A DNA stretch of 64,000 bases, from sequence record PV467749.1; one strand, given 5' to 3'. This document shows, piece after piece, positions 22,171 to 41,586 of the stretch. The position numbers and the translations under genes are program-made. The stretch comes from a phage. The first letter of the stretch is position 1. The number at the start of each line of letters is the position of its first letter. A model generated the notes under the pieces. The model saw only the letters and a program-made list of their open reading frames with translations, was not told the origin of the DNA and did not search any database.

Positions 22171-22203
22171 ATTATAGCAAAAAGGGCTGACCGAAGTCAA
22201 CCC
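22171..22203 (-). promoter_or_regulatory. Composite terminator/promoter: UUCG-tetraloop hairpin carrying TTGACT -35, followed by TATAAT -10
   Basis: Minus-strand reading GGGTTGACTTCGGTCAGCCC-TTTTTGC-TATAAT; hairpin overlaps stop of upstream HNH gene; -35 TTGACT (22195-22200) and -10 TATAAT (22171-22176) with 18-bp spacer; gene start at 22142. Confidence 0.6.
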
Positions 22204-22610
22204 TTTTTTCTTTCAATCAAACATAGTCTACCAGAATGTACCATGCGATGGTGATTAGAACAAAGAATCATACACTTTCGAATTTCATCTTTGATAGCAT
22301 CTCGACTTTTACTGAACATAGAACTTGGTGTATGTTCTTTGGTATTAGGGTCAAGATGGTGAAAGTCTAAACATTCTGGATACTTCATCATACAAACACT
22401 ACAACCATAAAATGATTTAACTCTGGTCATGAAATCTTTATTTTTTCTTTTGATTTCTTCAAGTTTTTTGACATCAGTTTTTTTATTTCTGGTTTTCTTA
22501 CTGGTAATATTACTACAACCTTTGCATGTATTTCTATGTTTCCCAGTATCACTTCTTATACCAAATTCACTAATGTCTTTTTCAATATTACACGTGATAC
22601 ACTTCTTCAT
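22197..22610 (-). CDS. HNH homing endonuclease
   Basis: 137 aa; Cys-rich N-terminus (CITCN, CKGCSN) and HNH core ..DFHHLDP..CSNHHRMVH. Confidence 0.75.
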   Translation of the reverse strand: MKKCITCNIEKDISEFGIRSDTGKHRNTCKGCSNITSKKTRNKKTDVKKLEEIKRKNKDFMTRVKSFYGCSVCMMKYPECLDFHHLDPNTKEHTPSSMFSKSRDAIKDEIRKCMILCSNHHRMVHSGRLCLIERKKG

Positions 22611-22894
22611 TGTTTAATCCATTTATTCAACAATGCACCCAACTTCACAATCTCATACCCATCCAGATAGCCATAGGAACACTCAGGTGTTTCATAAGTT
22701 GAACCATCATGGATACCTTGGCATTGGCTTTTGGAACGTTCAAGCAATCGTTGCAGTACTGATACGTCATCAAGAACGTAATACAAGTTAGCATATGGGT
22801 CCGTCACAATACAGTACTTAAACATACCAAATGTATCAATCGATTTTTCAACCTTAGCAAATTGTTTCTTTTCTTTATTATACAGTGCGTACAT
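22607..22894 (-). CDS. Hypothetical protein
   Basis: Start moved to internal Met (track 22912) so it follows the upstream stop; GGAG RBS upstream; about 95 aa. Confidence 0.55.
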   Translation of the reverse strand: MYALYNKEKKQFAKVEKSIDTFGMFKYCIVTDPYANLYYVLDDVSVLQRLLERSKSQCQGIHDGSTYETPECSYGYLDGYEIVKLGALLNKWIKQ

Positions 22895-22895
22895 A

Positions 22896-23267
22896 TTAAT
22901 CTCCACAATCAAGTTTAACTAACTTACCACCCAGATACCCAAAGTTTTCTGGCTTCGCATCTGAATAGAAGAAGTCAGTACTCAACTCTGAATCCAATGC
23001 TAAAGCACACAACTCCACCCAAAATAAACCCCTATGTTGTACTGGCTTACAACGTTTCTGTACAGTTACTAGTCCAGTACATGATGACCACAACGTAGGG
23101 CAGATACCACTATCACTACGCTTGGAGTACTGCATCCAAGAACGTTCATTGAGGTTAGCTATCATCCCTGTTAAGAATAGCTTCCAACTTTTAAAGGTTG
23201 GAATCTTGATAGCATATTCCCCAATGAGTATGACAGTTCGGGTTGCACCTTTCAAATCTATATTCAT
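22896..23267 (-). CDS. Hypothetical protein
   Basis: 123 aa ORF in minus-strand gene train. Confidence 0.6.
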   Translation of the reverse strand: MNIDLKGATRTVILIGEYAIKIPTFKSWKLFLTGMIANLNERSWMQYSKRSDSGICPTLWSSCTGLVTVQKRCKPVQHRGLFWVELCALALDSELSTDFFYSDAKPENFGYLGGKLVKLDCGD

Positions 23268-23276
23268 ATTTTTTAA

Positions 23277-23528
23277 TTAGAAGAACACAAACCAAGTCCA
23301 GAATAAATTCCACACTACAAATAAAGACATAGTGGTTTTATGTACAATATCAGCAGTACTGGTCCATCCTCCACCGTGTCCTATTCCATTTATGAATAGA
23401 ACTAAGAACAAGATACCATTTACTACAATAGTACATAGTAAGTACACAAACACATTCCATGCAAGTTCAGGGGATACTAACGTAAATGGTAAAACAATTA
23501 GTAGTATTAGAACTAATAAAATTTTCAT
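23277..23528 (-). CDS. Small membrane protein
   Basis: 83 aa, two hydrophobic helices. Confidence 0.55.
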   Translation of the reverse strand: MKILLVLILLIVLPFTLVSPELAWNVFVYLLCTIVVNGILFLVLFINGIGHGGGWTSTADIVHKTTMSLFVVWNLFWTWFVFF

Positions 23529-23556
23529 TTATCGCCTCACTTAATTAACGTGACAA

Positions 23557-23733
23557 TTAGTACGAATCAGATTCCCAGTACTCGATTGCTTCTTTCAGCA
23601 ATTCTTTAGCACGTTGTTTTGCAATGCGAGCGGGTAACAGATATGTGTACATTAACTGACGCTTCACTTCATTCAGTGAAAGCTGTTCATGGTACAGTGC
23701 ATCCATCAGTCGATTACGAGTACGTAGTTTCAT
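23557..23733 (-). CDS. Hypothetical small protein (58 aa), not in ORF track
   Basis: Hand-translated MKLRTRNRLMDALYHEQLSLNEVKRQLMYTYLLPARIAKQRAKELLKEAIEYWESDSY; RBS AAGGATAA upstream; fills gap between flanking genes. Confidence 0.5.
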   Translation of the reverse strand: MKLRTRNRLMDALYHEQLSLNEVKRQLMYTYLLPARIAKQRAKELLKEAIEYWESDSY

Positions 23734-23744
23734 ATAAGTTATCC

Positions 23745-39506: not shown

Positions 39507-39689
39507 TTATTCGTTGATTACGTCAAGTACTTTGTCCAGTTTCTTACCAATACTATCCTTTGGTTTCTCACCATTCTGGAATACATTAGTACTGCAATAC
39601 TCAGGACGGGTATTAGGGAACTTCTCGTTCATCCAGGAGTGACCATATACACCAAGAATGATACCTACGATAAGAATGATGATTTGCAT
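39507..39689 (-). CDS. Small membrane-anchored protein
   Basis: 60 aa; N-terminal hydrophobic segment MQIIILIVGIILGVYG. Confidence 0.5.
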   Translation of the reverse strand: MQIIILIVGIILGVYGHSWMNEKFPNTRPEYCSTNVFQNGEKPKDSIGKKLDKVLDVINE

Positions 39690-39703
39690 GATATATCCTC
39701 TAA

Positions 39704-40498
39704 TTAAATTACATATGGTTTATAGTAATGAATCTCGTTTGATATTGCAGCGAAGACTTTGTTATTAAATCTTTCACCATAATCACGAAGAGATTCACCT
39801 TCTTCGCTTTCAATAAAGTAATTATATACTGGTAGACGTGCGGTGTCAACACCTATAAATGATTTCATGTAAATTTGTACTAAACGATTCATTCCTTCAT
39901 TTAAGCATTGCACCTCAAAGTGCTTGATACCTTTGTCTAAATGTTTGAATGCATTAATGATACCACGTTTAAAATCACGCTGCATAGTACTGAATAGATT
40001 CTCAGGGAACACTGTAATAGGTGACATTGATTTAAGAATGTATGTATCTTTAGCATTCTTAATATACTCAATGAAGCAGTAGTTAACGTCAGGCTCGATA
40101 GAACGATCAGCGTTATGATACCAGTACTTAAACTCACTGTACTCAGCAAACTTATGCTGGCGTAATGCGTTACAATCCTCACACAGTGCAGTCATGTTCT
40201 CTTTATCATTGCCACCCTGGAGACAGTCCAGTACATTATGGTCTAACGTCATGCGTACAAGGCGTTTACCTTTAAGTACATAAGGTCTGAATTTATAACG
40301 GTCTTTAGTACTGTGCTTATGTAAAGTGAATACCACATTGGATTCACCACAACAATCACATTTAAAGCCATCGCGTGACATTACATGAATGAGTTTTCGA
40401 GTATTTGGGCCGAACTCAGATTTAGTAATGTTGCCAACAATTTCTGATGGGTCGTAGTATTTTGAATTCCGGCGAATCAATTCATCTATAGTGCTCAT
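39704..40498 (-). CDS. HNH-family endonuclease (putative)
   Basis: Start moved to Met31 (directly after upstream stop 40500); 265 aa; Cys/His motif ..CDCCGE..LDHNV..NMTALCEDCN.. Confidence 0.6.
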   Translation of the reverse strand: MSTIDELIRRNSKYYDPSEIVGNITKSEFGPNTRKLIHVMSRDGFKCDCCGESNVVFTLHKHSTKDRYKFRPYVLKGKRLVRMTLDHNVLDCLQGGNDKENMTALCEDCNALRQHKFAEYSEFKYWYHNADRSIEPDVNYCFIEYIKNAKDTYILKSMSPITVFPENLFSTMQRDFKRGIINAFKHLDKGIKHFEVQCLNEGMNRLVQIYMKSFIGVDTARLPVYNYFIESEEGESLRDYGERFNNKVFAAISNEIHYYKPYVI

Positions 40499-40499
40499 T

Positions 40500-40727
40500 T
40501 TATATTTCTCCAGCAAGACACTCAAAAGTGACTTTTTTAACTTCGATAACTCGTACCAAATAGTATCCATGAAAGAAATTAAAACCAATCATTTGTGATA
40601 ATGCATCTGCTTCAGATTTTGCACGGATACATGATAGATATAGTTCTCGTATATCGCCATCCAACGATGCTTGTTTCTCGTCATTGATAACAATAGAACG
40701 AATCTCAAAACGAACACCATAACTCAT
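40500..40727 (-). CDS. Hypothetical small protein
   Basis: 75 aa ORF. Confidence 0.5.
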   Translation of the reverse strand: MSYGVRFEIRSIVINDEKQASLDGDIRELYLSCIRAKSEADALSQMIGFNFFHGYYLVRVIEVKKVTFECLAGEI

Positions 40728-40933
40728 TCTGTTTGTCCAACAATTAGTTTCTCTTTAGTATTACTATTATAACACCACATTAATTCTTCACCAACTGTTC
40801 TAAGTGAAACGCTGTTTACTTGTTCATATGTACTGTCACGTACTGCAATACATTGATTCATTGAATTCATTGGGGTGATTTGTACACCAGATTGTGGTGA
40901 AAGAGCAATAATTAAAAAGATTACTGAATTCAT
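40724..40933 (-). CDS. Hypothetical small protein with N-terminal hydrophobic segment
   Basis: 69 aa; MNSVIFLIIALSPQSGVQ..; preceded by promoter 40998-41026. Confidence 0.55.
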   Translation of the reverse strand: MNSVIFLIIALSPQSGVQITPMNSMNQCIAVRDSTYEQVNSVSLRTVGEELMWCYNSNTKEKLIVGQTE

Positions 40934-40997
40934 TAGATATTCCTCGATGGTTAATCATCCATCTCTTCGAGATGTCTGTTCGCTTCTAATACTACGT

Positions 40998-41026
40998 ATT
41001 CTACGCGAATGAATCATAACTGTCAA
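40998..41026 (-). promoter_or_regulatory. Sigma-70-like promoter TTGACA-N17-TAGAAT
   Basis: Minus reading TTGACAGTTATGATTCATTCGCGTAGAAT, about 65 nt upstream of gene start 40933. Confidence 0.55.
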
Positions 41027-41567
41027 GGACTTTTAATATTGACGGGATTTGAGGAAGGGATTTTTCTTCCCCCCGCACGGAGGGAAATTTGACGCTGATG
41101 GTATCAGAGCTATTGCATTGAAGATTACTCATAACGAGTGCGAAAGCGGGTCATCCTGTTTCTCTCTACTTCAGTTTCATATGACGGTCTACACTTTTAA
41201 ACATAGTGTATCTTCATTAAGTATCTATGCAATCAAATACTTAATGTGAGTACTCAAATTTTGGACGCAACTTTCCTGTACAAAATTCGATAACTCTCCC
41301 TTAGATAATTCGTAAGGTGTTATCCTTATATGTCTATCGAGGAACCACCAGCTATCCTAACGTGGTTCTTTATACAGCCGCATTGCCGTGAGGGGTTCAA
41401 ACTATGCCCACATCTAACGGGTTTCTTTTGCTGTTCGCTACAATGAAAAGCTCATCTATCCTTTACATTTTCAAGTGAAGTAGGGGAAGATTGTCAGTAC
41501 CAGTACTGTCATTGTGATTGTACATAGATCATTGTATCACCATTAATAAATTTGTCCCATAAAAAAA

Positions 41568-41586
41568 GGCTGACCGAAGTCAACCC
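41568..41586 (-). terminator. UUCG-tetraloop hairpin terminator after the sigma-factor gene
   Basis: GGGTTGACTTCGGTCAGCC followed on the minus strand by TTTTTTTAT; 8 nt after stop of 41594-42559. Confidence 0.6.

Follow-up and report, generated by a model that had tools for sequence, protein, structure and literature searches.

The DNA analyzed here is a stretch of 64,000 nucleotides from a phage (sequence record PV467749.1), referred to below as the window. Its G+C content is 35%, and megablast assigns it to the RaK2/121Q group of jumbo coliphages (Asteriusvirus), with 98–99% identity to phages WPEC3 and fEgEco12 and approximately 90% identity to 121Q. From approximately 18 kb on, the GC skew is negative and small open reading frames (ORFs) lie on the minus strand. 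Nearly all genes of this block encode small hypothetical proteins in the annotation of relatives; those with names encode an HNH endonuclease, two virion proteins, and an RNA polymerase sigma factor. Here, we describe a short hairpin that recurs seven times within a 20-kb run of these small minus-strand ORFs, hypothetical in relatives, together with the promoter-like sequences that accompany it in five of the copies.

A search with GGTTGACTTCGGTCAGCC, allowing at most one mismatch per copy, returned seven matches on the minus strand of the window, at positions 22185, 26807, 27489, 29070, 29849, 33444, and 41568, and none in 100 dinucleotide shuffles. This result confirms the seven recurrent copies listed in an initial annotation of this DNA, which had been made from the sequence alone. 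All seven are intergenic and have the same orientation as the surrounding genes. Read on the minus strand, each consists of an A-run, GG(G)TTGAC, a 4-nt loop, GTC(A/G)(A/G)CC(C), and a T-run, with GGTTGAC-TTCG-GTCAGCC as the core. The A-run precedes the hairpin in every copy; four copies have GTCAGCC as the 3′ arm, two have GTCAACC, and the remaining one has GTCGGCC. The UUCG tetraloop, initially ascribed to all of them, is found in six; at 29849, the loop is UUCA (TTCA in the DNA).

A −10 hexamer is present in five of the seven copies, 17–18 bp past the TTGACT of the 5′ arm. Four copies (22185, 26807, 29849, and 33444) have TATAAT at 18 bp, and the copy at 29070 has TATACT at 17 bp. The arrangement TTGACT-18-TATAAT matches the sigma-70 consensus at 11 of 12 positions, and three of the seven copies have an extended −10 (TGnTATAAT). 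The five promoters and their spacing were thus read correctly in the initial annotation, but the exact string TTTTTGC-TATAAT assigned to all five occurs in two, and one has TATACT. The copies at 27489 and 41568 have no usable −10, and both have the hairpin and a run of seven T's. The initial view that one module of about 40 nt serves as both terminator and promoter is therefore applicable to five copies, and the other two appear to be terminators only.

Unseen at first was that the cassette runs on through a conserved 5′ leader to the start codon. The leader after the −10 is related in four copies, (t/c)atttcATCAA..., and a GAGG-type Shine-Dalgarno (SD) sequence and an ATG lie 25–50 nt past the −10. 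At the other edge, the stop codon of the upstream ORF is the TGA within TTGAC in three of the seven copies (ORFs ending at 22197, 29861, and 33456), and the remaining upstream stops lie 0–30 nt before the cassette. An overlap of the hairpin with the upstream stop codon, described earlier as frequent, is thus found in three copies and not in the other four, and at 29861 it hinges on one A more in a homopolymer run than in fEgEco12. Where it occurs, the predicted union of stop codon, terminator stem, and −35 box in an 18-nt hairpin is a compact design.

Cassette 1 (22143–22212; all seven cassettes are on the minus strand) follows an HNH endonuclease ORF (22197–22610) whose stop codon is the TGA within TTGAC. 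Its hairpin, GGGTTGAC-TTCG-GTCAGCCC, has its core at 22202–22185, after an A-run and before five T's, and folds at −19.8 kcal/mol. The predicted −35 TTGACT (22200–22195) and TGc-TATAAT (22176–22171) are followed by the leader tatttcatcaagacgagagga and an ATG at 22142. This copy is also the deletion junction described below. Cassette 2 (26767–26834) has the hairpin GGGTTGAC-TTCG-GTCGGCCC, which contains two G·U pairs (−19.1 kcal/mol), with a −35 at 26822–26817, TGc-TATAAT at 26798–26793, the leader catttcatcaactactggagg, and the ATG of ORF 26353–26766. Cassette 3 (27474–27514) appears to be terminator only; its hairpin, AAAAGGTTGAC-TTCG-GTCAACCTTTT, is followed by seven T's (−15.6 kcal/mol), the −10 position is unusable (gtaaat), and the copy lies between the gene of a 503-aa virion protein (27517–29028) and ORF 27194–27445.

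Cassette 4 (29029–29091; hairpin GGGTTGAC-TTCG-GTCAACC, −14.4 kcal/mol) has a −35 at 29085–29080, a 17-bp spacer, TATACT at 29062–29057, and the ATG of the virion protein gene at 29028; a homology breakpoint lies at 29094. In Cassette 5 (29789–29875), the hairpin GGGGTTGAC-TTCA-GTCAGCCC has the UUCA loop (−16.0 kcal/mol), and the predicted −35 (29864–29859) and TATAAT (29840–29835) are followed by the leader attttcatcaag; homology breakpoints lie at 29824–29845. This copy is predicted to be a weak terminator because its T-run (CTTTGTCG) is short. Cassette 6 (33401–33466; hairpin AAAGGTTGAC-TTCG-GTCAGCCTTT, −14.1 kcal/mol) again shares the TGA within TTGAC with the upstream ORF as its stop codon and has a −35 at 33459–33454, TGt-TATAAT at 33435–33430, the leader tatttcatcaaatactgggga, and an ATG at 33400. 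Cassette 7 (41560–41592), the second apparent terminator-only copy, lies directly 3′ of the phage sigma-factor gene (41594–42559); its hairpin, AAAGGGTTGAC-TTCG-GTCAGCCTTT, precedes seven T's (−13.9 kcal/mol) and has no −10.

An ORF-free gap of approximately 540 nt (41027–41567) follows Cassette 7. A TGa-TACAAT extended −10 lies approximately 30 nt past the hairpin, and the gap ends at a TTGACA-17-TAGAAT promoter at 41026. The same gap is found in fEgEco12, WPEC3, 121Q, and SHEFM2K; TH47 differs, with breakpoints at 41073, 41290, 41477, and 41530. The gap could encode a noncoding RNA.

As the initial annotation had anticipated, all seven copies fold. In 46-nt windows, the minus-strand RNA has predicted energies of −13.9 to −19.8 kcal/mol (z-scores of −3.4 to −5.8 against shuffles). 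The plus-strand RNA folds more weakly (−6.8 to −14.1 kcal/mol) because the U·G pair of GGUUGAC/GUCAGCC turns into a C·A mismatch, and the structure is therefore oriented with the genes. The conserved wobble also turns a reverse-strand TTGAC into CTGAC, possibly avoiding an antisense −35. An antisense function was considered and rejected: the plus-strand fold is the weaker one, the block has no plus-strand genes, and the reverse-strand TTGAC lacks a −10 in both perfectly palindromic copies. An Rfam scan of the whole window returned no family at any of the seven sites at the gathering threshold; its matches elsewhere were tRNAs and a group I intron only.

The comparison was then widened to 74 copies, drawn from the window and from five Asteriusvirus relatives, Klebsiella phage K64-1 (15 in 37 kb), Pectobacterium phage CBB, and two Vibrio phages. 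Of these, 70 have GGTTGAC as the 5′ arm. The 3′ arm is GTCAGCC in 46, GTCAACC in 13, GTCGGCC in 8, and GCCAACC in 2, with five single variants that include GTTGGCC, and nearly all of these changes (A/G or C/T) keep the RNA paired through G·U or A-U. The loop is UUCG in 53 copies, followed by UUCA, GAAA, UUAU, UUAG, UAAG, and others. In an alignment of the 53 distinct copies, pairing holds in 96.9% of cells, a value that no shuffle equalled, and slid registers pair in only 20–61%. Within the part of the stem formed by TTGAC, there is a single compensatory change, GGTTGGC-TTAT-GCCAACC (A-U to G-C), found in 121Q and SHEFM2K at the orthologue of the −10-less copy 41568, behind the sigma-factor gene. 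A compensatory change at a promoter-less copy fits a −35 constraint on the other copies; this pattern would be expected if pairing were selected everywhere and TTGAC only where a promoter is present.

These comparisons bear on whether the copies are plain intrinsic terminators with an incidental TTGAC in the stem, the downstream genes relying on other promoters or on read-through. A hairpin and a T-run are present in all seven copies, two copies are conserved without any −10, and the element appears solely as a terminator in the CBB paper and in several GenBank records. Yet the 5′ arm is invariant in nearly all copies, whereas ordinary terminator stems covary freely, and the TTGAC part of the stem is altered only where the −10 is absent. 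Moreover, 54 of 67 copies have a −10 that matches at least 5 of 6 positions at 17–18 bp (19 bp in one), and 40 of these 54 include TGn; among other TTGAC sites on that strand, the proportion is 138 of 472 (29%). A leader, an SD sequence, and an ATG then follow at a fixed distance. We therefore consider plain terminators improbable as a full account of the copies.

The pairing pattern also bears on an operator, in which the imperfect palindrome GGTTGAC-N4-GTCAGCC over the −35 would bind a dimeric phage or host regulator that shuts early promoters, the hairpin being irrelevant. Conserved arms around a 4-bp center that is free to vary are seen in many operators, the element overlaps the −35 box, and the phage encodes regulators and a sigma factor nearby. 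Against this, the 3′-arm variants GTCAACC, GTCGGCC, and GTTGGCC break the DNA symmetry yet keep RNA pairing by G·U; the T-run and the position at gene ends are features of terminators; and the promoter-less copies and the compensatory change suggest that it is pairing, and not a pair of identical half-sites, that is under selection. No candidate for the binding protein was found. An operator is accordingly a very unlikely explanation.

Dual terminator/promoter cassettes thus remain the reading that we favor, and it is supported by the sequence anatomy, the conservation pattern, and the published precedent discussed below. In the mechanism that we propose, an incoming upstream transcript would fold GGGUUGAC-UUCG-GUCAGCCC and then meet the U-run, so that hairpin and U-run would act as an intrinsic terminator, stopping or attenuating read-through. 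In the DNA, the bases of the hairpin would offer TTGACT as a −35, the rest of the hairpin and the T-run would form the 17–18-bp spacer, and TGnTATAAT would serve as an extended −10; the upstream A-run may be a UP-like element. Host sigma-70 polymerase would start approximately 7 nt past the −10, downstream of the hairpin, and the transcript would carry the conserved leader (uuucAUCAA...GAGG) and then the next gene. With a terminator and a promoter in one cassette, transcription would therefore be reset between small early gene units. The copies at 27489 and 41568 would have kept only the terminator half.

The initial annotation went further and suggested that the hairpin could occlude or modulate −35 recognition. 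Formed in the DNA or in polymerase-attached RNA, a hairpin might occlude or tune the −35, and upstream transcription would thus control the next promoter. The −35 and the terminator stem do overlap physically, and a polymerase paused or terminating in the U-run would cover the spacer of the next promoter, so that transcriptional interference is conceivable. This suggestion is not supported. Because the predicted start is downstream of the hairpin, the promoter's own RNA would not contain it, and the G·U wobbles, which are mismatches in DNA, mark selection at the RNA level and not at the DNA level. With arms of 7–8 bp and a 4-nt loop, the inverted repeat is not long enough to form a cruciform in duplex DNA, and we rejected both a DNA cruciform and occlusion of the −35 on structural grounds. 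Overall, there is little chance that occlusion of the −35 explains the element.

Since approximately 75 bp are repeated in direct orientation, the cassettes would also be substrates for homologous recombination, and recombination from cassette to cassette would delete, insert, or swap the genes between. WPEC3 carries two direct copies (16200 and 18901) 2.7 kb apart, around denV, an endonuclease gene, and two small ORFs. We compared this denV locus across the window (22135–22207), WPEC3 (16200–18901), and fEgEco12 (15482–16065). The upstream flank, cassette, and leader of window copy 1 (22135–22207) match WPEC3 copy 18901 up to ATGAC; past ATGAC, the window matches the gene behind WPEC3 copy 16200. 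By this alignment, the copy at 22185 is the chimeric junction of a precise 2.7-kb deletion between direct cassette repeats. A single hybrid copy is the product expected of homologous recombination between two cassettes, and the window phage accordingly has no denV (endonuclease V) at this locus and, compared with WPEC3, also lacks the 1.5-kb endonuclease gene.

The same cassette has different upstream or downstream genes in fEgEco12, 121Q, SHEFM2K, and TH47. TH47 has five copies within 4.4 kb at the denV locus, and half copies ending inside the hairpin are found in 121Q (17482) and TH47 (17485). Pairwise BLAST of window positions 18–45 kb against five relatives yielded 22 clusters of homology breakpoints, of which 5 fall in cassette footprints (2.3% of the region; P = 1.3e-4 compared with the whole region). 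That the cassettes may mark recombination joints had gone unseen at first.

Several points weigh against the combined regulatory and recombinational interpretation. Against an intergenic-only null, 4 of 10 clusters fall in cassettes at 23% coverage, which is not significant (P = 0.18); the breakpoint statistic is not decisive because gene-sized indels end between genes anyway, and the recombination reading consequently rests on the junction alignment. The stem covariation is thin, with most pairs invariant and the key compensatory change a single evolutionary event. An 18-bp spacer is suboptimal for sigma-70, and the T-run of copy 5 is short. Promoter and terminator activity are both inferred, from consensus matches and from experiments on different cassettes in phages RB49 and phi1. 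Finally, homing-endonuclease genes in the most variable locus could cause indels by a different route, and those at the denV locus may contribute to its variability.

The endonuclease genes raise the further question of whether the repeats are a selfish mobile element, or a target or landing site of homing endonucleases, whose spread reflects gene conversion driven by endonucleases and not a regulatory role. HNH or other endonuclease genes do lie beside copies (window 22197–22610; WPEC3, SHEFM2K, 121Q, and TH47), the five closely spaced cassettes of TH47 are at an endonuclease locus, and the element is present in several phage lineages. However, there is no endonuclease gene near 26807, 27489, 29070, 29849, 33444, or 41568. 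Copies occupy orthologous sites in different genera, such as the position ahead of denV that coliphages, K64-1, and CBB have in common, and the element shows neither terminal repeats nor target-site duplications and does not code for a protein. A selfish origin is thus hard to sustain.

The cassettes are best compared with the promoter-early stem-loops (PeSLs) of T4-type phages, which combine a strong sigma-70 promoter with a stem-loop and an AT-rich upstream tract; the stem-loop lies upstream of, between, or overlapping the −35 or −10 (PMC2839356; PMC4122927). PeSLs have an SD sequence and an ATG at the 3′ end and are clustered in hyperplastic regions of ORFans. Promoter and terminator activity was demonstrated with lacZ fusions, for some PeSLs in RB49/phi1, and recombination between copies yielded deletions and mini-circles (PMC2839356; PMC4122927). 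The window cassettes have the corresponding sequence features. An AT-rich tract and an upstream stop codon mark the 5′ edge, and an SD sequence and a start codon mark the 3′ edge. In five copies, sigma-70-like hexamers lie approximately 17 bp apart; in all seven, a stable stem-loop with a T-run that is predicted to terminate or attenuate lies in or beside the promoter position. The block is a hyperplastic region of small, mostly unknown genes. For CBB, the equivalent block, which has many RpoD-like promoters, is regarded by its authors as the early region (PMC5259590), and early timing of the cassette promoters is inferred. Taken together, these features indicate that the seven copies are probably PeSL-type composite regulatory cassettes in the early hyperplastic block of a RaK2/121Q-like jumbo coliphage (Asteriusvirus). 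The core interpretation of the initial annotation is thus sound, although membership in a described family had gone unseen.

The closest match is with the PeSLs of nt-1 and KVP40, which are Schizo-T-even T4-like Vibrio phages (Comeau, Arbiol & Krisch 2014, PMC4122927). The nt-1 PeSLs read AAAGGG-TTG(A/C)..-loop-..CAGCCC-TTTTTTG-TAT(T/C)AT, with the same layout as the window cassettes. In both, A3-4 lies ahead of a GGG...CCC stem with the −35 inside its 5′ arm, a T·G wobble is at an equal position, the spacer is 17–18 bp, and TAT(T/A/C)AT is followed by a leader, an SD sequence, and an ATG; both are set in blocks of small ORFans. Unlike nt-1 and KVP40, the present phage is a RaK2/121Q-like jumbo phage of approximately 350–385 kb, outside Straboviridae, and most nt-1 copies have TTGC.. 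with other loops, whereas TTGAC-UUCG is nearly fixed in RaK2-like copies. Sequence relatedness extends further. The 29-nt core AAAAGGGTTGACTTCGGTCAGCCCTTTTT is identical in the KVP40-like Vibrio phage D482, and the 12-mer ATCGAAACGAGA is found 6 nt past the −10 both in the cassette ahead of denV in coliphages and in many early promoters of nt-1. The shared offset of ATCGAAACGAGA suggests homology over convergence, short of proof.

The PeSLs of RB49 and phi1 (Arbiol et al. 2010, PMC2839356) likewise join a stem-loop terminator to a sigma-70 promoter close to consensus, with AT-rich DNA on the upstream side, an SD sequence and an ATG at the 3′ end, and flanking ORFans. In one subclass, the stem-loop overlaps the −35, as in the window cassettes, and recombination of direct copies removes the gene between them, comparable to the junction at window copy 1. 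The RB49/phi1 stems differ in being polyG/polyC, and most of them lie over the −10 or in the interval that separates it from the −35. The promoter and terminator activity and the mini-circles of RB49/phi1 are experimental, whereas the window cassettes are known from sequence alone.

Hairpins of the C(UUCG)G type were reportedly described in intercistronic regions of phage T4 by Tuerk et al. in 1988. Like these hairpins and other intrinsic terminators, the window copies combine a very stable UUCG loop closed by C-G with a GC-rich stem and a U-run at gene ends; unlike the window copies, the T4 hairpins are not known to carry a −35 box. The loop appears dispensable in RaK2-like cassettes, where GAAA, UUAG, UUAU, and UUCA are found at equivalent sites. 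Among the predicted rho-independent terminators of CBB (Buttimer et al. 2017, PMC5259590, Table S8), GGGTTGACTTCGGTCAGCCCTTTTT occurs four times (Torf39, 515, 518, and 520); all four matches in that supplement are in the terminator table, with the promoter half and a role in recombination not noted. In GenBank, the element is annotated as "terminator" in UE-S1, G17, and Munch, and as −35/−10 signals in fHe-Yen9-03.

BLAST with the hairpin returned 181–210 phage records. It occurs at 3–14 places per genome in RaK2-like phages of Escherichia, Klebsiella, Salmonella, Cronobacter, Pectobacterium, Erwinia, Serratia, and Yersinia, at 4–7 places per genome in KVP40-like Vibrio phages including nt-1, and also in T4-like phages of Aeromonas. 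By BLAST, 121Q has 8 places in its whole genome; examination of one 43-kb locus gave 9–10 copies. E. coli genomes contain no close copy (best match, 86.7% over 30 nt), and a host origin was rejected. We also rejected cotransfer of gene and cassette between lineages, as the ORF behind Cassette 6 has no Vibrio-phage homologues; its homologues are found only in RaK2-like phages and a few other enterobacterial or Xanthomonas phages. Tentatively, the cassette may be one homologous module common to RaK2-like enterobacterial jumbo phages and Schizo-T-even Vibrio and Aeromonas phages, acquired by transfer or from a common T4-like ancestor. Our literature search found no paper describing the composite nature of the cassette in RaK2-like phages and no transcript-mapping study of a RaK2-like phage; searching for the literal sequence gave one unrelated paper. 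Promoters and terminators are not covered in the RaK2 genome paper, and the N1M2 paper was set aside because that phage is phiKZ/OBP-like. The cassette thus belongs to a published class that has so far been annotated only piecemeal in the RaK2-like lineage.

A second, unrelated composite cassette occurs approximately 10 times on the plus strand between 948 and 16970 (948, 2129, 3326, 4515, 9306, 10547, 11797, 13047, 15724, and 16943). It consists of a hairpin, GCCAGTAC-ttga-GTACTGGC, followed by TTTTCTTTTTG, ATTAAATATAGTATAATGAATAAAGGAGG, and an ATG, and it stands before every gene in a tandem array of RCC1-like "DNA condensation" paralogues. This cassette resembles a terminator joined to a late-type (ATAAATA-like) or TATAAT promoter and an SD sequence, and it may have been copied along with the gene duplications. 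Two further overlaps of promoter and hairpin lie on the minus strand. At 52349–52406, TTGACA-18-TATACT is followed at once by the hairpin AAGGCTGATTCA-taa-TGAATCGGCCTT and a T-run, and at 43799–43834, the hairpin GGAGTACAATGTGCTCC lies over the −10 TACAAT. By their layout, both resemble other PeSL subclasses. In K64-1, the cassettes at 43156, 44984, and 48713 are followed not by an ORF but by a conserved ...agcccacagggtgccga(g/a)gtgt, possibly a tRNA-like RNA gene transcribed from the promoter in the cassette.

The window also contains a second class of early promoters, close to consensus, that reads TTGACA-N8-(c)AGTACTG-TATAATg with a 16–17-bp spacer in which the AGTACT palindrome abuts the −10 (minus strand; 24373, 35238, 39200, 56971, 57730, 58151, and 59526). 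One of them contains the 121Q/SHEFM2K homology breakpoint at 39152–39179. The palindrome CAGTACTG occurs 37 times in the window, compared with 0.96 expected (maximum of 3 in 100 shuffles), for example at 1500, 24352, 39179, 57709, and 58130. AGTACT itself occurs 184 times in the 64 kb, against a naive expectation of approximately 22, and GGTACC, CAGCTG, and CTGCAG do not occur. AGTACT-type sites fall in coding sequence, promoter spacers, and terminator stems. The excess was found in all RaK2-like loci fetched (112–222 per 40–49 kb) and was absent from Vibrio phage nt-1 (15 in 45 kb). A full-length group I intron (Rfam RF00028, 99 bits) lies at 56433–56747 on the minus strand amid four or five tRNA genes (Thr, Asn, Ser, and Ser); nearby tRNA genes on that strand are at 54301–54372, 56080–56153, 56847–56936, and 58755–58844.

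The cassettes do not overturn current understanding of these phages, but they extend the PeSL concept beyond Straboviridae. Synthetic biology could also draw on the 18-nt hairpin, which would hold a stop codon, a terminator stem, and a −35, as an elegant natural part. If the module is indeed homologous across lineages, its approximately 75 nearly identical base pairs would give phages that are otherwise unrelated the homology needed to swap early genes. Within the group, the cassettes would explain how the gene content of the early block changes between near-identical isolates, as in the loss of denV and the endonuclease gene here, and they would offer a ready map of early transcription units for Asteriusvirus, Alcyoneusvirus, and Mimasvirus, which are poorly understood jumbo phages and therapeutic candidates.

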